A stretch of DNA of 16,329 nt, from assembly GCA_018400815.1 (NCBI GenBank), contig JAGYLS010000040.1:1-16329 (forward strand). The letters run 5' to 3'. The notes beneath the pieces are model-generated. The model did not search any database. It was not told where the DNA came from and saw only the letters and a list, made by a program, of their open reading frames with translations. A program made the position numbers and the translations under genes. Below are positions 3,698 through 16,262 of this stretch, in pieces (the stretch's first letter is position 1; each line of letters opens with the position of its first letter). The stretch comes from Candidatus Oleincola secundus (GTDB lineage Bacteria; Atribacterota; Phoenicimicrobiia; Phoenicimicrobiales; Stramentimicrobiaceae).

Positions 3698-5212
3698 ATG
3701 TCTAAAAAATACTTATTGAGTCAATACAACCATACTATCCTGGTAACTGTAATCAATATCTTAATCATTATTTTTAGTTTAACTAATTTTTCTATGGCAG
3801 AAACTATTCAAGATACTATTGATGTCAGGGACTATATTGAAAATAAATTTGATTCAGCCATATTTCATTTATATCTGGGGTCGATGGGAGAACTGGATAG
3901 CAAAGAAATTGAATTTATCGAATTGCTTGTTGACCAACCTGGAGATAGTCAAATATTTTACGGCAAAAAAGTTTACCAAAAAGGATTCGATTCAGCTCTT
4001 TTGGAGCAATTAAAAGAGGAAATCAAAGAAAGAGAAAAGTTAGCAATCGAAAAACTCGAAGAGGTTATTGATGATATTCCTGAATTATCCCTACCTACCT
4101 TGCCCCCAATGGAATTTTGGGAGAGAATCTATGCTCGCATGGTTTCCATGCAAAAAATAATCACTACTACCGATTATAATCGTTTTTCTATATGCGGTGT
4201 GGATTCTGCCCGTAGCGAACGAGTGGTGAAACGAGTAAAAAATTATTTCGACTGGTCTAAACAATGGAGTAAAGAAGGACAGGAACTAGAGCAGCTGGCA
4301 GAAAAAGCCAGGTTAGAGGGGAATATTTTTTTAGCTCGTCGATTATTTCATGAGGCAGCCGGTTGTTTTCATGTTGGTGCATTTATTAACTATTATAATG
4401 TTGAAGAAAAAATTGAGGCACAAAATCTTGCCAGAAAATGCTATCAAAAGGCAATTGCTTTATATAATGAAAAGGAAAGACCAATTAGAATCGAGATTCC
4501 CTTTCGGGGAGTGGAGATACCGGGATATCTTATGCTGACCAGCCAGCCCGACCAGCCTTTGATTATATTTGTCAATGTATTGAACAATATCAAAGAAGTA
4601 GAAAACCATTTCTTTGCCCAGGATTTCTTAAAAGCGGGATTTAATGTATTTAATTTTGATGGACCCGGCCAGGGTGAAATGCATCAAAAAATGCGTTTAA
4701 TACCTGATTATGAGAAAGCTATCCATGCTATCATCGACTGGTTTGAAGTAAATAATGACTTTAATATTAATCTAGATCGAATTGGAGTAATGGGAATTAG
4801 TTTTGGGGGTTTTTCTTCTATAAAAGCGGCGGCTTTGGATTCCAGGATTGACTGTGTTATAAGTAACGGTGGCTATGCCTATTTCCCACCGCTTTCACAT
4901 CTTAAGAAACTGAGTATTCCTACCAGACGTTCAATTTATTATATGACCGGCTATCAAAAAATGAGTGAAGTAGATGAACATTTTGGTCATCTGGATATCA
5001 AAACATGTCCGCCTCTTGATAGGCCTATGCTGATTATTCAGGGAGGCAAAGATAAAACAGTACCCCCGGAACATGCTGATTATTTTATGGAATGGGCAAC
5101 AAGTAATGAAAAGGAATTATTTTATATTGAAGATGCTAATCATTGCTGCCAGGATTACTTTGATTTGATTACCCCTTATACAATTGATTGGCTGAGGAAA
5201 CATTTATTATAA
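3698..5212 (+). CDS. Alpha/beta-fold hydrolase (FrsA / 2,6-dihydroxypseudooxynicotine hydrolase-like) with N-terminal signal-like segment and extra domain
   Basis: 504 aa. FDGPGQGE, nucleophile elbow GISFGG (Ser368), QGGKD (Asp452) and ANHCC (His482). A helical W..W...G..LE..A region precedes IEIPF...IPGYL, as in this family. Hydrophobic residues about 13-27 are followed by SMA-ET. AAGGAG lies upstream. Confidence 0.82.
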   Translation: MSKKYLLSQYNHTILVTVINILIIIFSLTNFSMAETIQDTIDVRDYIENKFDSAIFHLYLGSMGELDSKEIEFIELLVDQPGDSQIFYGKKVYQKGFDSALLEQLKEEIKEREKLAIEKLEEVIDDIPELSLPTLPPMEFWERIYARMVSMQKIITTTDYNRFSICGVDSARSERVVKRVKNYFDWSKQWSKEGQELEQLAEKARLEGNIFLARRLFHEAAGCFHVGAFINYYNVEEKIEAQNLARKCYQKAIALYNEKERPIRIEIPFRGVEIPGYLMLTSQPDQPLIIFVNVLNNIKEVENHFFAQDFLKAGFNVFNFDGPGQGEMHQKMRLIPDYEKAIHAIIDWFEVNNDFNINLDRIGVMGISFGGFSSIKAAALDSRIDCVISNGGYAYFPPLSHLKKLSIPTRRSIYYMTGYQKMSEVDEHFGHLDIKTCPPLDRPMLIIQGGKDKTVPPEHADYFMEWATSNEKELFYIEDANHCCQDYFDLITPYTIDWLRKHLL

Positions 5213-5245: not shown

Positions 5246-5481
5246 TTTATTTAACCATGAAAAAACACCTTCTAAGAAGGTGGTAATGGTTAAATAAAGG
5301 TTTTACCATAAAAATATCAAGATAAGCCATATGATAATTTTTCACCTGAAATCCAAAGAGTTATGTTATTTTGAAATATTCAGTTAAATATAAGAAAGAG
5401 CATAGCATAAATTAACCAGGAAAAAGGCATACATCTTTTAGAGATTCTTAAAGCCACCCGCTTTGCGGGTGTGATGTTTAT
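5246..5481 (+). mobile_element. Copy 1 of a dispersed hairpin-rich repeat, probable non-autonomous IS200/IS605-derived miniature element
   Basis: 5246-5350 aligns with 8148-8254 with 9 mismatches and one 2-nt indel by hand count. 5445-5471 is identical to 8307-8333 (27 nt). Left hairpin CACCTTC-TAA-GAAGGTG is nested in a perfect 13-bp stem (5246-5258/5286-5298), and the right hairpin is CACCCGC-TTT-GCGGGTG. No transposase ORF. The repeat itself is certain; the IS origin is inferred. Confidence 0.65.
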
Positions 5482-5512
5482 TAATCCAGTATTTAACAAC
5501 GGAATACTATAG

Positions 5513-6739
5513 ATGAAAAATAAAAATAAAAGATTACCCAATAAAATTATATCCGGATTATTTCTTAATAGCTTAAGATGGTATTTGGGAAACATCTTTT
5601 CTCTAAACCTGGAAAAGAATGATACCATAAAACTTAACCCTCCATATTTGTTGATCGGAAACCATGCCAATTTTTGGGACGGAGTTTTGGTAAATCTCTT
5701 TATCAAGGATCCTATCTGTTTCCTGGTTTCAGATGAATATTTTCGCAAACCCCTTTTAGGATGGCTTCTCCAAATAGAAGGTTCAATCCCCAAGAAAAAA
5801 TATTTTGCAGATTTTACGGCAATCAAAGAAGCTTTAAAAGCAAAAGAGACAGGACGTATTATCGGGATTTTCCCGGGAGGCAATCGTAACTGGGATGGCT
5901 CCACCGAAGAAATTCTTTTCCCTACTGCTAAACTGATTAAAATGTTAAATATACCGGTGGTACGTGTTTTGTCAAAAGGTTCTTATCTGACTTATCCCCG
6001 CTGGGCTAATTTTAAGCGAAGAGGCAAAATATCTTATTCTTATGATTTAATCTTAACAAATGAGAAAATTCAGGAATTGACTGTTGAAGATATTTACCGT
6101 GAAGTTACAAAAAGCCTGTCTTACCGGGAATATGATTATCAGAGAACGGCAATGAATAAATATATGGGAAAAAATCTTGCCGAAAGATTGGAATTATTTT
6201 TATTCTTATGCCCCAAGTGCCATCAAATAGGTTCACTTCGTTCCAGAGGTGATATTCTCAGTTGTCAGACCTGTGGTTATGAGGTGAAATATAACCAATA
6301 TGGTTTTCTCAGCTCTGAAAAACAACACCTCTATTTTGATAATCCTGATGATTGGAATCAATGGCAAATCAGCTGGATAAAAGATTTTTTAGAAAAAAGC
6401 ATTAAAAACGGAAGTCAGGAAACTCTTTTGCAGGATAAGGGAGTCAATATTACCAGGATTATTAAACAGAAAATTCTGGAACAGGTAAAATATGGCGAAT
6501 TGTCTTTAAGAGGAAAGGAACTTATTCTGAAAACAGATACCTCGGGGGCTTTACATTTTAAGTTAAGTTTGATTAAAGGACTTAATGTTCAATATAATAA
6601 TCAGCTCGAGTTTTATTATCAGGATGAATTATATAAATTTAATTTTGATAATCCCTCGATTTCAGCCTATAAATGGTATAAAATAATAAAATTATATCAA
6701 AATATATTTTTTAATATAAACAGCGTGGAGGAGACATGA
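5513..6739 (+). CDS. PlsC-family (1-acylglycerol-3-phosphate / lysophospholipid) acyltransferase with C-terminal Zn-ribbon-containing extension
   Basis: 408 aa with the catalytic NHxxxxD motif (NHANFWD), a block III variant IFPGGNR, and IPVV. CPKC-x14-CQTC at residues 233-254. The RBS is weak, so the start is less certain. Confidence 0.85.
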   Translation: MKNKNKRLPNKIISGLFLNSLRWYLGNIFSLNLEKNDTIKLNPPYLLIGNHANFWDGVLVNLFIKDPICFLVSDEYFRKPLLGWLLQIEGSIPKKKYFADFTAIKEALKAKETGRIIGIFPGGNRNWDGSTEEILFPTAKLIKMLNIPVVRVLSKGSYLTYPRWANFKRRGKISYSYDLILTNEKIQELTVEDIYREVTKSLSYREYDYQRTAMNKYMGKNLAERLELFLFLCPKCHQIGSLRSRGDILSCQTCGYEVKYNQYGFLSSEKQHLYFDNPDDWNQWQISWIKDFLEKSIKNGSQETLLQDKGVNITRIIKQKILEQVKYGELSLRGKELILKTDTSGALHFKLSLIKGLNVQYNNQLEFYYQDELYKFNFDNPSISAYKWYKIIKLYQNIFFNINSVEET

Positions 6740-8094
6740 ATCAAAATTGGACAATGATTATAGATTTTTTATGGCTTTCTTTGTTTGTTGGTATCGGTGT
6801 GTTCTTGAAAAGGAAAGTTTATTTTTTTCGCAAATATCTTTTCCCCACCGCTATTATTGCCGGGTTTATCGGCTTGCTGCTGGGTCCTGAAATACTAAAT
6901 ATTATACATTTAGATAATGAACGGCTAGGCAGTTTGGTTTATCATCTGATGGCTGTTGGGTTTATAGCTATTGCGCTGAAAAAAAGGGAACATACCCATA
7001 GTAAAAATATTGTCAATTCAGGTATTTATATTGTCAGCATTTATGTGGTTCAGGGAATTGTTGGTTTTACAATTTCTCTTTTGCTGGTAAATACTTTTTT
7101 CCCGGATTTGTTCCCGCCTTTTGGCTTATTATTGCCATTGGGGTTTGGCCAGGGACCGGGTCAGGCTTATGCTATAGGAAGCCAGTGGGAGGAAATTGGT
7201 TTTTTTCAGGGAGGAAACATTGGTCTTTCAATTGCTACCATCGGTTTTCTTTGGGCTTGTATTGTAGGAGTTATCTTTATGAATTACTTAGTCAGGAAGG
7301 GTATTTTCAAAATAGAATCTGATAGGGGTAACCGAAAAGAAGAAAAAATTCATGAAGAAATGGATTCAGGAGAACTTCCTCTGGGTGCTTCTTTAGACGA
7401 CATTTCTATTCAATTGTTTTTGATTGGTCTGGTGTATTTGGTAACTTATCTAACTTTATTAGGTTTAAATACTATATTGGTTTCGCTGGGTACCTTTGGA
7501 GAAACGCTTGCTCAGCTATTCTGGGGATTTCACTTTATTATCGGAACCACCTATGCTATTTTACTGAGAATTGGTTTTGACCTATTTAAGAGAATGAAAA
7601 TAATGACCCATGAATATCCAAATAATTATATGTTACAGAGAATTGCGGGTGGCTCTTTTGACTTCATGATTGCCGCAGCTATTACTGCTATTTCATTGAA
7701 AACATTACGCTATTATATGATTCCTACTTTGCTCATTACTACTATTGGGGGAATAGTAACAATTTTCTTTATCTTGTGGATGACTCGTCGTATTTTTAAA
7801 GAAGATATTTTTGAAAATACCCTGGCTTTTTACGGAACATATACAGGTACCATTTCTACCGGGATGGCTCTATTAAAACAAATAGACCCGGGTTTTCATT
7901 CACGAGCATCGGAAAATATTGTCCTGGGTAGTGGGGTTGCTCTTTTATTTGGTTTTCCTCTTATGGTGATTTTAAATATTCCCATATTCGGGTATGTTAC
8001 CAACCAGCCTTCAATGTATCTGCTGACATTGCTTGCATTTTTGGTTTATTTTGGCATTTTATATTTTATTCTATATAAGAATAAACCCAAGTGA
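6736..8094 (+). CDS. gltS: Sodium:glutamate symporter (GltS/ESS) family membrane transporter
   Basis: 452 aa with about 10-12 hydrophobic segments. N-terminal LKRKV..F.KYLFP.AIIAG.IGLLLGP, re-entrant-loop-like GFGQGPGQA and YGTYTGTISTGMALL..IDP. ATGA overlap with the upstream gene and a GGAGGAG RBS. The substrate is not established. Confidence 0.8.
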   Translation: MNQNWTMIIDFLWLSLFVGIGVFLKRKVYFFRKYLFPTAIIAGFIGLLLGPEILNIIHLDNERLGSLVYHLMAVGFIAIALKKREHTHSKNIVNSGIYIVSIYVVQGIVGFTISLLLVNTFFPDLFPPFGLLLPLGFGQGPGQAYAIGSQWEEIGFFQGGNIGLSIATIGFLWACIVGVIFMNYLVRKGIFKIESDRGNRKEEKIHEEMDSGELPLGASLDDISIQLFLIGLVYLVTYLTLLGLNTILVSLGTFGETLAQLFWGFHFIIGTTYAILLRIGFDLFKRMKIMTHEYPNNYMLQRIAGGSFDFMIAAAITAISLKTLRYYMIPTLLITTIGGIVTIFFILWMTRRIFKEDIFENTLAFYGTYTGTISTGMALLKQIDPGFHSRASENIVLGSGVALLFGFPLMVILNIPIFGYVTNQPSMYLLTLLAFLVYFGILYFILYKNKPK

Positions 8095-8147
8095 TAGAAA
8101 AGTCTTCAAATAGAAACGTTCTAGTCCTGTAAAGTTTATCAAAATAT

Positions 8148-8343
8148 TTTATTTAACCATGAAAAACCACCTTCTAAGAAAGTGGTAATGGTTAAATAAA
8201 ATGGTTTTATCATAAAAAGATTAAGATAAGCTAGATGTCAATTTTTCACCTGAAGTTCAATGTAGGAAGTGGGATTGCTAAGAAAAAGCTAAACCTCTTT
8301 AAGAGGTTCTTAAAGCCACCCGCTTTGCGGGTGCGATATTTAC
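8148..8343 (+). mobile_element. Copy 2 of the dispersed hairpin-rich repeat, probable non-autonomous IS200/IS605-derived miniature element
   Basis: Direct repeat of 5246-5481 with a middle about 40 nt shorter. Perfect 15-bp outer stem (8146-8160/8188-8202) encloses ACCACCTTC-TAA-GAAAGTGGT. Further hairpins are AACCTCT-TTA-AGAGGTT (8292-8308) and CACCCGC-TTT-GCGGGTG (8317-8333). Confidence 0.65.
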
Positions 8344-8358
8344 AGTTATGATAAGTTT

Positions 8359-8389
8359 TTGACAATACAAATAGCTTATAACATAATAG
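8359..8389 (+). promoter_or_regulatory. Possible sigma70-type promoter for the kinase-HIT-addBA genes
   Basis: Perfect TTGACA at 8359-8364. The best -10-like hexamer, TATAAG at 8384-8389, has a non-ideal 19-nt spacer. Confidence 0.3.
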
Positions 8390-8424: not shown

Positions 8425-9354
8425 ATGTCAACTGTCATTATTATCGGTGCGATTAATTTGGATTGTATGGCTTATCTTCCTTATTTTCCGGTTGAAGGAG
8501 GAAACTTGCGTGCCAAAGATTTTAAATTCTGTCTTGGTGGCCATGGTGCAAATCAGGCAGTTGCTTTAAATAACTTAAAAGTTAACAGTTTATTAATGGG
8601 GAAAGTAGGCAATGACTTCGCTGGAGACCATATTCTATCTGTTTTAAAAAAATATAAGATTAATACGGAATATGTTTTTAAGAGCAATATTGGTAAAACC
8701 GGAATATGCTCTATTTTAGTCAGCCCTAACGGTGAAAATACCATTATCGGATTTCCTGCTGTAAATCGTATGGTTCAAGCGGATTTTTTGATGCGTTTTG
8801 AGCCTATTTTTGAATTGGCTGAATGGCTTAGCGTTTCCCTGGAATATCCAAAAGATACAGTGAAATTTGCCTTAAAATTAGCTAAAAAATGTCAATTAAA
8901 GACAGTGTTAGACCCTTCACCATTAATTGATTTGCCCGAAAAAGATTTATGGCCTATGGTAGATTATGCTTTACCCAATCAAAAAGAGTTAAAAATTTTA
9001 ACTGGAGAAGATGAAATGTTACAGGGAGCGAATGTACTCAAAGATTGGGGAGCAGGAGAAATAATTGTCAAACAGGGTGCAGGAGGAAGCAGTTTTTTAC
9101 ATCAGGATAACTTAATTAATGTATCTGCCTTTCCAACTAAATCCGTTGTCGATAGCACCGGAGCAGGTGATTTATTCAATGCTGCCTTTATCTATGGAAT
9201 GATTCAATCCAATTCTATTGCCAGGTCAGTGCAGATTGCCAACCTGGTTGCATCTTATTCAGTTCAGAAGAGGGGAACCTGTGAATCGTTTCCGGATAGA
9301 AGGGAAATTGACTGGGGACAGTTAGATAAGAGAAAAAATGATTTATTATTTTAG
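8425..9354 (+). CDS. rbsK: PfkB-family carbohydrate kinase, ribokinase-like
   Basis: 309 aa with N-terminal GAINLD, GGHGANQA (PfkB signature 1-like), GKVGNDFAG, LDPSP, PNQKE, VKQGAGG and DSTGAGDLF (signature 2). GGAG RBS. Confidence 0.88.
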   Translation: MSTVIIIGAINLDCMAYLPYFPVEGGNLRAKDFKFCLGGHGANQAVALNNLKVNSLLMGKVGNDFAGDHILSVLKKYKINTEYVFKSNIGKTGICSILVSPNGENTIIGFPAVNRMVQADFLMRFEPIFELAEWLSVSLEYPKDTVKFALKLAKKCQLKTVLDPSPLIDLPEKDLWPMVDYALPNQKELKILTGEDEMLQGANVLKDWGAGEIIVKQGAGGSSFLHQDNLINVSAFPTKSVVDSTGAGDLFNAAFIYGMIQSNSIARSVQIANLVASYSVQKRGTCESFPDRREIDWGQLDKRKNDLLF

Positions 9355-9865: not shown

Positions 9866-12800
9866 ATGTACCTATTATTAGAATCCTTACAGAAGATAAC
9901 ACAGAAATATCTTTTTGAAAAAAAAGTTATTATTGTACCTTCTTATTTGGATGGAAATACTTTAAAAAAAAATCTTTCCCATGAGGGATTTTCCGCTCTG
10001 AATTTCCGGAGTAGTACTCTTTTTGATTTTGCTAAAGAAATTTGTTCGGATGTCGTAATGAAAAAGGGTTTGAAAATCATGGATAGCCCGTTGGGGCAGG
10101 TTGTAATATTACAAATACTTAAAGAATTATCTTCACAGGACAGGCTGACTTATTTTCGATTACCTATTATTTCTCCGGGATTGGCAAAATCCATTTTTCG
10201 CACAATCAAAGAAATGAGAGTATCCGGTTATTTATCTGGTAATTGGCCTTCTGATGTATTTACAGGTTCGGAAAAAATGAAAGACCTACAGCAGGTTATG
10301 CTGGATTATGAAAAACAGTTAGGCAATAGAAATCTGATAGATGAAGCCGGGCTTTATTCTCTGGCAAGAAGGACAAATACAAAGAAAGACAATTCTATTT
10401 ATATTGTTCCTGCTAATATACAGATGAATGAATTAGAACTGGGATTCTTTAATGAAAAAATCAGACCCACTGCACATATACTTGAAATTTCCTGCCCGGA
10501 AGCAACGGTAGCTCCCCATTCCTTTTCTTTAACTGGCGTTCAGGAGAGGTTGCAATGTCAGGAGAAAAAAATTTTTGACTTTTTATTCAGCCGGGATGAA
10601 GTCCCTGATAGATTGCCTGAACCGGATATTGAATTCTATCAATCCTATGGAGGATATACGGAAACCAGGGAAGTCCTGAGGTATATTGCTGAGAAGGAAT
10701 TATCCCTTGATCAGGTCCAGGTTTTTTATACAACACAGGAACCATACTCACAATATTTCTATGAGTTATCTAATTTTTATGATATACCTGTAACTTTTTA
10801 CAGTGGGATACATATTAAAAATAGTCGTCCGGCCAGATTACTTTTTTCATTAATTGATTGGATAAATGATGATTATAGTGTTGCCAAACTATTTTCATTG
10901 TTAAATAGTGATCATATCAATTTGCATTTAGGAGAGCAGTTAGAGATTCGAGAAATGGCATCATTGTTACGTCAATCCCCGGTTGGCTGGGGTAGAAACC
11001 GTTATATCCCGGGCATCGAACTGGCTATTAGAGAAAGAGAAAGAAAGATTGAAAATGCTTCTGATGATAATGCTCAAAAATATCTGATTGAAATAGCACA
11101 TTACCGGGCATTAAAAGATTGGATTGAGAAAATATTTACAGAGATACCCCAAAGCAATTTTCATTATAGAGTGTCTCTTTCTGCCATTGCCCGCGGCTTT
11201 GGCAATATTATCAACCAATATGCAAAAATCGAAAAGAATAATAAGAATAATTTTCTTGATGAGGAAGCCAGTTCTATTATCCAGGAAAAAATGGACATGC
11301 TGGAGAAAAACGCCAGGAATGAGTTTTCGCTTAGTGAAGCTTTGCACCTGATTGAGGATTTGATAAATGAGATTCGTATTTGCTGCTCGGAGCCGCATGC
11401 CGGAAGCCTGCACGTTGCCAGTTACAAGAAGGGTATCTGGATGAATCGACCCTATACCTTTATTGTTGGAATGGACTCTCATAAATTTCCGGGAAATACC
11501 GATGAGGGGACAATATTCCTTGATACGGAGAAAAAGTTCTATAAACATTTACTAAGCGATGCACAGAAAAATAAAATTGAGCAATATAGATTACTTCAGC
11601 TTATCTTGTCTGCAACAGGGAAAAAAATCTTATCCTTTTCCTGTTTTGATACTGCAGACCAACGGGAACAGGCTCCTGCTTCAATGCTGTTACAGTTATA
11701 TCGCCTGAAGGAAAAGGATATTGGAAAGAACTATAATGATTTTTATCAATATTTAGGCGCAAAAAGAATATTAATTCCCAAAAAAAAGTCAGAGATTCTG
11801 GATAAGGGGGATATCTTTCTTTATTTTTCAAAACAGGAAAAGAGAAGTTTGGAATTTCTTGTTGAACAAGAATATCCCAATATTATAAAAGGAATCAAGG
11901 CAGACTTAGAGCGAAAAAAGGAAGAGTTCAATACCTATAATGGTAAGGTTGAAGTTATCGGTAAGAAAGTTGACCCACGTCAAAATCGTGGAATAATCTT
12001 ATCCAGTTCCAAGCTGGAGCGAATTGCCTATTGTCCTTATCTTTATTTTTTAAATGATATACTGAAGATAAAACCCCCCGAGGAAATGGCCTATGAACCG
12101 GGACAATGGATGAGTCCTTTAGAAAGAGGATTGCTTCTCCATCAGATTTATGAAAAATTCTATAAAACACTACTCAGTATTTCTAAAGGAAAATTAGAAC
12201 CTCCGTCCTTTAAAAAGCACTGGCCTATACTGGAAAATATTGTCCTGGAAAGCCTGGAAGAAAAAAGAAAATACCTGGCACCTCCCGGAGAATTAATTTA
12301 TCAGGCTGAGAAAAGAGGGATACTGGAGTCCTGTCAAATGTTTTTAACCGGGGAAGAGCAAAATTATCAGGGAGAGGTACCTGAATTCTTTGAACTGGCG
12401 TTTGGTACCAGGGATAATGAACACGAGGTTCTGGGAAAAGTCAGGGCAGTGGAATTAACCCTTCCTGATGGTGAGAAAATCAGTTTTCAGGGAAAAATTG
12501 ACCGGATAGATAGATTACCTGATGATACCTTCAGGATTATTGATTACAAGACGGGAATTTCCAGGGACTATAAAAAGGGAAAAAATTTTCGTCATGGTCA
12601 ACAGATACAGCATGCCTTATATGCTGTTTCCCTGGAGAAAATATTAGAAAAGAAAGATTATTGTCCTAAGCCGGAAGTTAGCCTGTCAGGTTATTATTTT
12701 CCGACTGTTCAGGGTCAAGGGCGTCTTGTCCTCTATGACAGAAAGGATAGAGAACAGGTTCTACAAATTATTGAAATCTTGCTTAATATAGTCACTCAGG

Positions 12801-12961
12801 GAAATTTTGCCATGACCAAAAAACCGGATGACTTTATGTGCCAGAATTATCAGGATATCATGGAACAGAATGAAATCATTTTTATCGAGGGGAATAAAAG
12901 CAAAATATATCAGAATGAACCTGCCCTGGATTGTATAAGGAGGCTACAGAACTTTGAATAA
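9866..12961 (+). CDS. addB: AddB-like subunit: inactive helicase scaffold plus C-terminal PD-(D/E)XK RecB-family nuclease
   Basis: 1031 aa. C-terminal LSSSKLE...CPY.YFL...L, RGLLLH, FEL.FG, GKIDRID, IIDYKTG and Q..LY. No Walker A motif. Overlaps the downstream UvrD-family gene. Confidence 0.82.
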   Translation: MYLLLESLQKITQKYLFEKKVIIVPSYLDGNTLKKNLSHEGFSALNFRSSTLFDFAKEICSDVVMKKGLKIMDSPLGQVVILQILKELSSQDRLTYFRLPIISPGLAKSIFRTIKEMRVSGYLSGNWPSDVFTGSEKMKDLQQVMLDYEKQLGNRNLIDEAGLYSLARRTNTKKDNSIYIVPANIQMNELELGFFNEKIRPTAHILEISCPEATVAPHSFSLTGVQERLQCQEKKIFDFLFSRDEVPDRLPEPDIEFYQSYGGYTETREVLRYIAEKELSLDQVQVFYTTQEPYSQYFYELSNFYDIPVTFYSGIHIKNSRPARLLFSLIDWINDDYSVAKLFSLLNSDHINLHLGEQLEIREMASLLRQSPVGWGRNRYIPGIELAIRERERKIENASDDNAQKYLIEIAHYRALKDWIEKIFTEIPQSNFHYRVSLSAIARGFGNIINQYAKIEKNNKNNFLDEEASSIIQEKMDMLEKNARNEFSLSEALHLIEDLINEIRICCSEPHAGSLHVASYKKGIWMNRPYTFIVGMDSHKFPGNTDEGTIFLDTEKKFYKHLLSDAQKNKIEQYRLLQLILSATGKKILSFSCFDTADQREQAPASMLLQLYRLKEKDIGKNYNDFYQYLGAKRILIPKKKSEILDKGDIFLYFSKQEKRSLEFLVEQEYPNIIKGIKADLERKKEEFNTYNGKVEVIGKKVDPRQNRGIILSSSKLERIAYCPYLYFLNDILKIKPPEEMAYEPGQWMSPLERGLLLHQIYEKFYKTLLSISKGKLEPPSFKKHWPILENIVLESLEEKRKYLAPPGELIYQAEKRGILESCQMFLTGEEQNYQGEVPEFFELAFGTRDNEHEVLGKVRAVELTLPDGEKISFQGKIDRIDRLPDDTFRIIDYKTGISRDYKKGKNFRHGQQIQHALYAVSLEKILEKKDYCPKPEVSLSGYYFPTVQGQGRLVLYDRKDREQVLQIIEILLNIVTQGNFAMTKKPDDFMCQNYQDIMEQNEIIFIEGNKSKIYQNEPALDCIRRLQNFE

Positions 12962-15900
12962 GAATTCCAAAGTAGCATTAAATGACAGTGAAGCCAGAAA
13001 TCAGATTGTTACCGACCTGAATCATAATTTCCTGGTTGAGGCAAGCGCCGGTTCAGGAAAAACATCCAGCCTGGTAAAAAGAATGGTTGCTCTTATTAGT
13101 TCTGGTGAATATTCTGTTGAACATATTACTGCTATTACCTTTACACGCAAAGCTGCCATTGAATTGAAGGAAAGGTTCCAGCAGGAAATTGAAATGGCCT
13201 TTATGGATACTGAACAATCCCGGGAAAGGGGCTTGCTGCAACAAGCACTGGCAAATATAGAACAGTGCTATCTTGGAACGATTCATTCCTTTTGTGCACG
13301 TATTTTGAGAGAGCGGCCTATTGAAGCAGGTTTAGACCCGGGTTTTAAAGAAATGGATGAGATTGACAATATATTATTTATGGAACAGGCCTGGGAGCAA
13401 TATTTAAGCAGTCTGAAGATACAGGATTCCCCCCTATTACAGAAGTTGGAAGAAGCAGGCATTCAGATACGGGAACTTAAGGAATGCTATAAACAGATTT
13501 GCCAGTATCCTGAAATACAGATAGTCCGCCAAAAGGCTTCCTGCCCTGATTTGAATCAGGCTATAGAACAGATCATTTCCTTTTCTAAAGAGGCAGTTGA
13601 ATATATACCCAAGCAGGAAACAGGACAAGGATATGATGCAATTCAACAGGCTGTTCTTTTAGTGCAAAGATTAAAGAACTATAGAGCCTATATGGAAAAA
13701 GATTTTAATAAAATTACCTTACTGGAAGCTTTTAATAAAAATTTTGCCGGTTCCGGACAGATAACCCTTAATCGCTGGTTATCAAAAGAAAAAGCCAAAG
13801 AATACAGAGATACAATATTGCCCCGGTTAAAAGAGGAATATATAGAACAGGTTATTAAAGAGTGGAGAGAATATTGTCATAATGATATTCTTCAATTTAT
13901 CCAACCGGCAGTGGATTACTACCATGTTTTTCGAGAGAAACGCTCTATGTTAAATTTCCAGGATTTACTATTAAAAACTGCCTTCCTTTTACGTGATAAT
14001 CCTGATATTCGTCGATATTTTCAGCAGAAGTATCGTTCCATACTGGTAGATGAATTTCAGGATACTGACCCTATCCAGGCAGAGATTATTTTCTATTTAA
14101 CCGGACATAATTTCCAGGAAAAAGACTGGAAAAAACTGGTTCCCCGAGCAGGTTCTCTGTTTATTGTCGGTGACCCGCAACAATCTATCTATCATTTTAG
14201 AAGAGCAGATATTGCGGTTTATAAACAGGTTAAATCTCTTATTAGAAACAGTAGGGGAAGAGTAATTAAGCTTAATGCCAATTTTCGTTCACTTCATTCT
14301 ATCGGAAAATATCTTAATCCCCTTTTTAATGAGTTGTTTTCTGCCCGGGAAGGAGAATTACAGGCGAAATATGCGCCTATGCAAACCGTTAGGCAAGACA
14401 GGAAGGGACATCTTTCCGGTATTCGACAGATTGTGATTTCCAAGGAGAAAGATAAAACAAAAACAATTGAAAATGATGCCCGGGCAATTGCCCGATTAAT
14501 CAGGGACTGGATAGACCGGAAGGTCAAGATTATCCGTACGGAAGAGGAATTGAAACAGAATATAGCTCCGGAAGTTAATTTTAGTGATTTTATGATACTA
14601 TTGCGCTATAAAAGCGGTATGGACATCTATGCCAGAGTACTGTCAGAATATGGAATCCCGGTTACGGTTTCCGGTTATGCTTCCATAAATCAATCCCAGA
14701 ATATACGTGAATTATTAAAATTATTACGTCTATTAAGGGATCCGGAAAATCAGGTATTATTGGTAGCTGTATTGCGGGGAATATTTTATGGTTTTTCCGA
14801 TCAGGAACTTTATGAATATAAGGCAGCAGGAGGAAGCTTTGATTTTTTATCTGATATTCCGGAAAACCTGGAAAGTGATTTAGCAGAGAAATTCAGGAAG
14901 GTTTTTGGAAATCTGAGAGATTATTATAAGTGGAGTTCAGAACTATTACCTGTAAATGTGCTGGAAAAAATCATGATTCAATCCGGTCTGCAGCCCTATG
15001 CTTGTGGAGATATTGGCGAAGATAATAAAGGAAATGAACTCTATTTTATACTTGAACATCTGAGAAAGTCAGATATCAATGATTTTTACACCTATGACGG
15101 GATGGTTGAAACATTGGAAAAGATATGGGAGTCAGGTATTGAAGAGGAATTGGATATGCTGGCTGAGGAAAACACAGTTCGGATTATGAATTTGCACAAA
15201 GCCAAGGGATTGGAATCACCTGTTGTATTTCTGGCTATTCCTTATCATAGCAATAACCAGGAACCTGAACATCATATTGAACGTCTTACTGAAATTCCCC
15301 GGGGTCATTTTCTGGTTAAGAGGGCACATCTTTATGGTAAGGGTAAAATTATTGCCCAACCAAAAAAATGGAAGGAATATTGCCAGTTAGAGACTTCCTA
15401 TCTACAAGCTGAAGAAATACGGCTTCTCTATGTTGCTACCACCAGGGCAAAAAATATGTTAGTTATCAGCAGTCTTGGTCAGGGTAATAGCAGTAACAAG
15501 AATAATCCGTGGAAGCCATTATTAAGAGACATTCAACCGGAAATGGTTCTGGAAATACCGGAAAAGCTAAAAATCGAGAAAAAGAGTAAGAGCAAAATTT
15601 ATAGTGTGGAAGAATTTGAAAAACAAAAAGAAATGACTGATAGATGGCATAAGCATGCTATAGCTAAAAATTTTCTTGAGAAAACGCCATCAGACCTGGA
15701 AAAGTTTGATGAAAATCAATCCAGGCTTATTCCTACTATAGACAAAGGTGGCATACATTGGGGTAATGCCGTACATGGGGTTCTGCAATACCTGGTAAGC
15801 AAGCAGCCGTCAGAAGAAATGCTTTTTTTATATATCAATTATTCCCTGGAAAAAAATAATATATCAACTCACCGGATAGATGAACTGTATCAGCTTGTTC

Positions 15901-16262
15901 AAAAATTCCGGGATAGTAAACTATTTTCCCGTATAGAAAAGTCTAAAAGGCGATTAACAGAAGTCCCCTTTAACTTAAAAATAATTTCAACAGATCCGCT
16001 TTATCAAAAATTAATCAGCGAGGAAGAAAAAAATGAAAAGGAGTCACGGCCTATCATTATGAATGGAACCATTGACCTGGTTTTCCGGGAATTAGAAGGA
16101 TGGGTTATTGTAGATTATAAAACAAATTGTCCCAAATATGAAAAAGGATATGAATATTTTCAGCAAAAATACCAGCAGCAGATTGATGTTTATAGTGCTA
16201 TCTGGCAAAAGATAAGTGGAGAAAAAGTAAAAGAAAAAATTATTCATTTTATAGCGAGGTAA
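12954..16262 (+). CDS. addA: AddA-like UvrD/SF1A helicase with C-terminal RecB-family nuclease
   Basis: 1102 aa with a TTG start and AAGGAGG at 12937-12943. Helicase motifs ASAGSGKT, AITFTRKAA, TIHSFC, LVDEFQDT, VGDPQQSIYHFRRAD, NFRS, MNLHKAKGLE and LLYVATTRAK. Nuclease motifs GNAVH, EVPF, GTIDLV, IVDYKT and QQQIDVY. Confidence 0.92.
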   Translation: MNKNSKVALNDSEARNQIVTDLNHNFLVEASAGSGKTSSLVKRMVALISSGEYSVEHITAITFTRKAAIELKERFQQEIEMAFMDTEQSRERGLLQQALANIEQCYLGTIHSFCARILRERPIEAGLDPGFKEMDEIDNILFMEQAWEQYLSSLKIQDSPLLQKLEEAGIQIRELKECYKQICQYPEIQIVRQKASCPDLNQAIEQIISFSKEAVEYIPKQETGQGYDAIQQAVLLVQRLKNYRAYMEKDFNKITLLEAFNKNFAGSGQITLNRWLSKEKAKEYRDTILPRLKEEYIEQVIKEWREYCHNDILQFIQPAVDYYHVFREKRSMLNFQDLLLKTAFLLRDNPDIRRYFQQKYRSILVDEFQDTDPIQAEIIFYLTGHNFQEKDWKKLVPRAGSLFIVGDPQQSIYHFRRADIAVYKQVKSLIRNSRGRVIKLNANFRSLHSIGKYLNPLFNELFSAREGELQAKYAPMQTVRQDRKGHLSGIRQIVISKEKDKTKTIENDARAIARLIRDWIDRKVKIIRTEEELKQNIAPEVNFSDFMILLRYKSGMDIYARVLSEYGIPVTVSGYASINQSQNIRELLKLLRLLRDPENQVLLVAVLRGIFYGFSDQELYEYKAAGGSFDFLSDIPENLESDLAEKFRKVFGNLRDYYKWSSELLPVNVLEKIMIQSGLQPYACGDIGEDNKGNELYFILEHLRKSDINDFYTYDGMVETLEKIWESGIEEELDMLAEENTVRIMNLHKAKGLESPVVFLAIPYHSNNQEPEHHIERLTEIPRGHFLVKRAHLYGKGKIIAQPKKWKEYCQLETSYLQAEEIRLLYVATTRAKNMLVISSLGQGNSSNKNNPWKPLLRDIQPEMVLEIPEKLKIEKKSKSKIYSVEEFEKQKEMTDRWHKHAIAKNFLEKTPSDLEKFDENQSRLIPTIDKGGIHWGNAVHGVLQYLVSKQPSEEMLFLYINYSLEKNNISTHRIDELYQLVQKFRDSKLFSRIEKSKRRLTEVPFNLKIISTDPLYQKLISEEEKNEKESRPIIMNGTIDLVFRELEGWVIVDYKTNCPKYEKGYEYFQQKYQQQIDVYSAIWQKISGEKVKEKIIHFIAR

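Follow-up and report, generated by a model that had tools for sequence, protein, structure and literature searches.

Palindrome-associated transposable elements (PATEs) are a known class of selfish DNA; they were defined in Haloquadratum walsbyi (PMC3119063), and a PATE-like remnant of IS605 has been described in Halanaerobium hydrogeniformans (PMC7290912). For IS608 and the IS200/IS605 group, transposition proceeds through a single strand, with insertion into the lagging-strand template (PMC3201880). Here we describe a repeat family that is represented twice in a 16,329-nt stretch of Candidatus Oleincola secundus (Atribacterota; contig JAGYLS010000040.1 of assembly GCA_018400815.1), referred to in its full length as the window. 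Copy 1 occupies positions 5251–5481 and copy 2 positions 8153–8343, and all features of the two copies are given on the plus strand. Judged from its sequence, the family is a PATE family of the IS200 group. We are highly confident that the repeats are a transposase-less, internally deleted IS200-group element that lies at about 100 intergenic sites, inserted 3′ of TTTAT, and that was likely moved in trans by the Y1 (HUH) transposase of a relative.

Our comparisons with described systems draw on the available portions of the cited reports. Like the PATEs of Haloquadratum and Halanaerobium, the present family is transposase-free, has no terminal inverted repeats and carries near-terminal palindromes matching IS200/IS605 ends; its target oligonucleotide lies outside the element, its insertions are strain-specific, its cores are heterogeneous and subject to deletion, and other mobile elements have inserted into copies. 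It differs from those PATEs in being bacterial and in deriving from a tnpA-only element of the IS200 group rather than from IS605 with tnpB, and from the published PATE descriptions in a left end whose extra arm pairs with the element's own target. With IS608 it shares subterminal hairpins, each with a four-base guide on its 5′ side, strand bias, a left cleavage site outside and a right cleavage site inside the element, and insertion 3′ of a tetranucleotide in which no bases are added or removed (PMC3201880). Unlike IS608, it contains neither tnpA nor tnpB and uses TTTAT, not TTAC, as its target (PMC3201880), and its left cut lies closer in, 10 nt before the guide, as compared with 19 nt to the hairpin foot in IS608. 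Salmonella IS200 likewise belongs to the tnpA-only group and has two inverted repeats in its left end, of which the first is terminator-like (PMC4513863), but in the present family the coding part is deleted. Repetitive extragenic palindromic (REP) sequences, BIMEs and REPINs associated with TnpA-REP are likewise palindromic, intergenic and numerous, and are linked to Y1 transposases (PMC3333891), whereas the present family has a fixed target, left and right ends that differ from each other, and a direct parent in an IS200 element, the enzyme of which is not a RAYT. A further report describes introns in proximity to an IS605 element (PMC7923331) and has no bearing on the family described here. 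A literature search covering few subscription journals returned no paper joining Atribacterota with IS200 or miniature-element terms.

The original prediction, made from the letters of the window, had described two related hairpin-rich elements with conserved ends, and the resemblance that it reported is real: positions 5246–5350 and 8148–8254 differ by 9 mismatches and a 2-nt indel, and positions 5420–5480 and 8282–8342 (61 nt) are 87% identical, including 27 identical nt. The middles barely align, as it had also noted; copies 1 and 2 represent separate sub-lineages, and the second falls short of its subfamily consensus by about 45 nt. Its expectation of many more copies was borne out by an nhmmer profile built from 37 seed rows, for which 164 raw hits reduced to 117 without overlaps and to 103 merged loci in this 2.02-Mb assembly, compared with no locus in the reversed genome. 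Both ends are present in 52 loci, the right end in 87 and the left end in 63, and together the loci cover 18.2 kb, or 0.9% of the assembly, which is 86% complete and has 9 copies at contig ends. Among 42 near-full-length copies, pairwise identity is 63–95% (mean 82%) with no identical pairs, and three main subfamilies comprise 19, 9 and 7 copies. Of 41 genomes searched, 12 contain the right-end pattern, this one included, with 45–72 matches each in this genome (G000) and in genomes G001, G007 and G013. Among 86 genomes of the phylum, a looser pattern is found in 20, every one inside the order, and the exact right-end pattern has 24 loci in genome contigs, 22 of which are Atribacterota by their titles. 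Several longer copies of 260–390 bp (C203:21384-21776, C57:13925-14290, C159:15307-15629 and C170:36439-36699) have in common an additional stretch of roughly 150 nt inside the element, which contains G- and C-rich runs and was unmatched to tnpA.

The ends of the element were located from conservation and from orthologous empty sites. TTTAT stands 5′ of 53 of 61 left ends, and conservation is gone at position −6; right ends close in TTTAC in 45 of 87 cases and otherwise in variants, with conservation stopping 1 nt past TTTAC. In genome G013 exactly 5251–5481 is missing and one TTTAT is kept (L069), and in genome G007 exactly 8153–8343 is missing, again with one TTTAT kept (L085); the search for empty sites proposed at the outset thus succeeded for both window copies. 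Other relatives listed span site 1 (four) or site 2 (six) without the element, with gaps that are shorter and more diverged, and one contig of run X6, with a short side of 30 nt, also skips copy 1. Both copies lie where the original prediction put them, but the first five nucleotides that it assigned to each are the target TTTAT, outside the element (5246–5250 and 8148–8152, the left cleavage site of copy 1 and its counterpart at copy 2). Copy 1, also a profile hit, is 231 bp long, and copy 2, internally deleted, is 191 bp long. Same-genus genome G001 has copy 2 at the orthologous place with the same internal deletion (166/191 identical). As first described, the copies have no terminal inverted repeats and no open reading frame (ORF), with none of ≥70 aa inside either of them. 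Target duplication was seen in 0 of 51 copies; at copy 1, where both ends show TTTAT, we rejected it, since the right cleavage site there has changed from C to T. The family therefore has neither the terminal inverted repeats nor the target duplication of a classical miniature inverted-repeat transposable element.

A joint between 5196 and 5499 in runs X6 and X7 was rejected as a clean empty site because it is a larger deletion: in these related strains, 302 nt are lost that take copy 1 plus the last codons of the hydrolase gene. Tandem junctions, in which a right end is followed directly by the next left end, occur at C79:12029-12312 and also at L104–L106; these are places at which the right cleavage site has served as target.

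Guides and cleavage sites of such elements pair position by position, a rule with which the IS608 pair AAAG/TTAC agrees. We examined tnpA-bearing relatives among 86 loci, which gave 62 left and 63 right ends once duplicates and loci without an anchor or a hairpin had been dropped. The rule holds at 59 of the left and 61 of the right ends, compared with averages of 39.5 (left) and 28.3 (right), and at most 49 and 38, when guides were permuted 2000 times; as the elements are kin, no formal P value is attached to these counts. Applied to the family, the rule matches AAAA with TTAT and AAAG with TTAC, which are the boundaries given by the empty sites, and AAAG/TTAC is the commonest right-end pair (30/87). 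The predicted left guide AAAA lies at 5261–5264 in copy 1, 10 nt from the cut, as placed by spacing and by the guide/target rule of the relatives, and at 8163–8166 in copy 2 by the same rule. The predicted right guide AAAG lies at 5450–5453 and 8312–8315. End conservation, guide rule and empty sites all place the right cleavage sites at 5478–5481 in copy 1, where it reads TTAT (TTAC in most copies), and at 8340–8343 in copy 2, where TTAC forms the last bases of the element. On several contigs of genome G007, about 10 copies have the altered right guide ACAG instead of AAAG, which suggests a sub-lineage that spread despite a guide outside the pairing rule.

A search for Y1_Tnp in 41 genomes, followed by a profile scan of 43 loci, yielded a full-length, transposase-carrying element with nearly the same ends, of the kind that the original prediction had proposed to look for. 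In genome G036 both ends enclose a 148-codon open frame, the product of which is an IS200/IS605 transposase (NF033573, 149.8 bits with a cut-off of 55; PF01797). Full elements measure about 570 bp and contain tnpA only, with no room for tnpB. Three tnpA-bearing elements (L099, L100 and L113) are identical to the window copies at 48–55 of 62 left-end and 37–41 of 45–47 right-end positions; for copy 1 and L100 the values are 55/62 and 38/46. Of the 86 genomes from the phylum, 5 contain close relatives of this tnpA, and all 5 belong to the sister family f2 (including G036, G083 and G084); further close relatives lie on metagenome contigs, as judged from the best 80 of 498. The repeat also has a third hairpin, overlooked in the original prediction, that is a relic of the final tnpA codons and stop. 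In copy 1 the last two codons and the stop correspond to 5433–5441 (CTC TTT TAG, or L-F-stop, in the parent, at the same position before the right hairpin), and in copy 2 a hairpin covers the relic stop region at 8291–8309, as judged by folding and comparison with the parent.

Genome G084 supplies an intermediate: two intact tnpA frames accompanied by two identical 252-bp short copies in unrelated flanks. The core of this short form scores 87 when aligned to the 3′ part of tnpA, where none of 200 shuffles exceeds 44, and 77 when aligned to the second subfamily of the present genome, where 30 shuffles reach at most 51. Read from these alignments, the family is the product of internal deletion followed by spread in trans, fresh in G084 and old in this genome, where the copies are at most 95% alike and the spread therefore looks old. 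The IS200 tnpA on contig C133, which sits behind the right end of a copy, was considered as parent and rejected because it has other hairpins, 38% identity and a single copy. This second IS200 (C133:17098-17640, L001) has an intact tnpA and lies directly behind the PATE right end; relatives of it are present in genomes G015, G019 and G027.

Placement of the copies follows a pattern. In gene-strand orientation, 72 of 81 copies lie on the majority strand of their contig, intergenic TTTATT sites show no majority-strand bias (609 versus 744), and flank GC skew is positive in 87 of 100 copies. Orientation and skew fit insertion into the lagging-strand template by analogy with IS608, with replication direction known by proxy only. 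None of the 103 copies overlaps a crudely called ORF by >45 nt, yet 13317 of 18815 TTTAT sites (71%) lie in ORFs. A co-directed gene lies upstream of 72 of 90 copies, compared with 41.6% expected, at a median distance of 36 bp in co-directed pairs. This placement fits replication-coupled insertion plus purging of in-gene insertions.

Based on these observations and on IS608 biochemistry, we propose the following sequence of events. TnpA, likely made by a full-length relative, would bind both subterminal hairpins; the left guide AAAA would pair with TTAT and the right guide AAAG with TTAC; and the top strand would leave as a single-stranded circle to enter another TTTAT on the lagging-strand template. 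Spread in this lineage was probably old, with the parent now lost or unassembled. After insertion, copies would acquire point mutations and lose parts of the core, and their left quasi-palindrome would be perfected or deleted through template switching, either of which would remove the guide and immobilise the copy. Survival would be limited to sites between genes, likely because in-gene insertions are purged, and some copies may serve as incidental terminators.

Several observations weigh against this reconstruction. T follows the right end in 79 of 87 cases, so that the flanks alone would allow a one-base shift of both cuts; the boundaries are settled by the orthologous empty sites and by guide/cleavage-site covariation across related elements. 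In a fragmented assembly, strand bias is inseparable from transcription. The three subfamily consensus cores align to tnpA no better than shuffles do (17, 79 and 47 of 300 as good), and the link of the family to tnpA therefore runs through the G084 and G036 intermediates. A cognate tnpA was found neither in this genome, where the best tblastn match is another IS200 with different ends and 38% identity, nor, at E≤1e-40, in 21 same-family genomes; with the genome 86% complete and 9 copies at contig ends, its absence is not shown. Among the matches listed, blastn of six parent coding sequences against this genome gave only short A-rich matches (E≥0.005). Tblastn of the parent tnpA against the window contig gave no match, and a plasmid collection held no match to the parent. 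Finally, private substitutions are fewer at GC sites of the right hairpin (11/455) than in the core (64/1182), with Fisher P=0.05 for both stems together; the low right-stem rate may reflect selection, template-switch repair or the choice of copies with intact ends.

The hairpins themselves bear on the alternatives. In copy 1 the left subterminal hairpin (5266–5282, from folding and a terminator scan) and in copy 2 its counterpart (8166–8186, from the terminator scan) are terminator-like on the minus strand; the right subterminal hairpin, CACCCGC-TTT-GCGGGTG at 5455–5471 in copy 1, is terminator-like on the plus strand by fold and scan, and that of copy 2 folds at 8317–8333. As originally described, both ends form hairpins, and these beat shuffled sequence (left, z −4.5 and −4.3, equalled by 0/200 shuffles; right, z −2.2 and −3.3, equalled by 6/200 and 2/200). 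The perfect 9-bp left stem is present in neither copy, each having one substitution.

Could such hairpins be maintained for their effect on RNA? The Salmonella IS200 5′ end reportedly yields a regulatory RNA, which we count in favour of this idea, and the IS200 left hairpin of Salmonella is described as a bidirectional terminator (PMC4513863). The family would then be IS200-derived but domesticated, as a structured RNA or a terminator cassette whose hairpins are now selected to terminate or stabilise transcripts between co-directed genes. The avoidance of ORFs and the short distance behind co-directed genes described above agree with it, as do two terminator-like hits in each window copy where 0.1 would be expected, and the paucity of private substitutions at right-stem GC sites. 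We nevertheless consider it very unlikely. Relatives lack the element at both window sites; in G001 the right hairpin of the copy 2 orthologue is broken (−2.6 versus −8.1 kcal/mol), and this orthologue, although more similar (166/191) than four-fold sites of the ribokinase gene (80/107), is no better kept than its flanks (119/137); and the hairpin is gone in 17 of 76 left ends. Neither window copy contains a promoter-like site, and no Rfam model matches either copy at E≤5, the window's five matches at that threshold lying elsewhere and below gathering score; no riboswitch or leader therefore replaces the insertion-sequence interpretation, and the structured-RNA alternative offered in the original prediction has little support. 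Five RNA runs contain 5–12% of the words of the stretch, which counts as no evidence on expression.

The source of the transposase invites a different question, namely whether a resident, vertically inherited Y1 enzyme, RAYT-like or the unrelated IS200 tnpA of C133, spread a REP/REPIN-like family that did not depend on its own parent. The element is abundant in several genera of the family, with no cognate tnpA detected there, this genome has four Y1 matches, two of them in frames of 256 and 305 aa, and one intact IS200 tnpA adjoins a copy's right end. However, ends, target and guide spacing are of the cognate IS200 type and not of the REP type, and the parent tnpA scores 149.8 bits on the IS200 model and 28 on the RAYT model NF047646 (cut-off 80). 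Of 41 relatives, 39 contain Y1 matches and 12 contain the element; the C133 element, a single copy, is equipped with hairpins of its own; and the lack of identical copies in this genome (maximum 95%) gives no sign of current activity. We attach hardly any probability to this explanation. Mobilisation in trans of a non-autonomous IS200/IS605-derived family, as first suggested, is thus the reading we retain, on the strength of copy number, ends shared with a tnpA element, empty sites and the lack of an Rfam match.

Within this PATE interpretation, the left end has a feature that escaped the first description. The first bases of the family's left end and an internal arm are complementary over 13 bp, target included. 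In copy 1 the resulting long quasi-palindrome spans 5246–5298 (fold z −4.5), its 13-bp outer stem enclosing the subterminal hairpin and predicted to form from the target plus the start of the left end paired with the internal arm; in copy 2 it spans 8146–8202 with a predicted 15-bp outer stem. In predicted folds the target of the window copies is paired 98–99% of the time (unpaired 2% of the time in copy 1, at a freeing cost of 4.8 kcal/mol), as compared with 57–79% free in four parents, and the predicted cost of freeing it has a median of 5.2 kcal/mol in 31 guide-type copies versus 0–0.9 in parents. On this modelling, an arm covering its own target is a feature derived in this family. Among 76 left ends, 15 are perfected palindromes without a guide and 17 lack the hairpin; the type labels of C79+6296 and C185+6292 look wrong by eye and were kept unchanged. 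A tree of 50 cores includes 11 perfected and 11 hairpin-less rows; either state requires 11 changes on it, of which strongly supported branches force at least five, so both perfection and hairpin loss arose repeatedly after insertion. In 26 of 52 copies, versus 17 expected, the flank base at −6 and the base that follows the arm are complementary (P=0.002; A/T runs may inflate this), and single copies show compensatory pairs in the left end. Template switching at quasi-palindromes is a known type of mutation, and since it also yields compensatory changes, covariation cannot separate RNA function from DNA-level repair.

These folds and counts raise the doubtful but specific possibility of a self-locking PATE that is turning into a REP-like repeat, in which arm pairing with its own cleavage site would act as a two-state switch throttling excision, with ratcheting perfection. 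The left arm would cover TTTAT and the first 8 bases, so that excision is throttled yet spread still possible, and template switching would turn copies one by one into guide-less, immobile perfect palindromes of >20 bp. Group II introns are found beside some copies. At C192:1820-3935 (minus strand), a copy is split just behind the left hairpin by an intron that measures about 1.85 kb and carries a reverse-transcriptase-like frame; an intron 3′ end adjoins the same position in the autonomous element L116, a similar one occurs in L117, and in L147 an intron starts right after the right end.

Both window copies lie between plus-strand genes. Copy 1 is flanked by genes for an alpha/beta-hydrolase (3698–5212) on its 5′ side and an acyltransferase (5513–6739) on its 3′ side, copy 2 by genes for a sodium/glutamate-symporter-like protein (6736–8094) and a ribokinase-family protein (8425–9354). 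The hydrolase is a 504-aa FrsA-like protein with a hydrophobic N-terminus, in which about 180 residues precede the matched domain; genome G001 carries a second paralogue. Upstream of the ribokinase-family gene, 15 nt past copy 2, lies a near-consensus sigma-70-like promoter (8359–8387, 11/12), and similar hexamers are also visible in relatives without the element. Further downstream, after a HIT-family gene, AddB- and AddA-like helicase/nuclease genes occupy 9866–16262, with scores far under curated cut-offs.

For annotation, a repeat that is common in several related genera and often found at contig breaks now has its ends defined exactly, along with its target, its parent and a likely mechanism. 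The family and its relatives show clearly how guide and cleavage site covary at the ends of IS200-group elements and form a natural series: a full element, a fresh 252-bp derivative beside its transposase, and an old, diverged family without a transposase. The target-covering arm and recurrent perfection give a small testable idea of how single-strand transposons may become inactive hairpin repeats. If self-locking were true, it would provide the lineage with transposase-free, strong intergenic hairpins, perhaps serving as host terminators, and with homing sites for group II introns.

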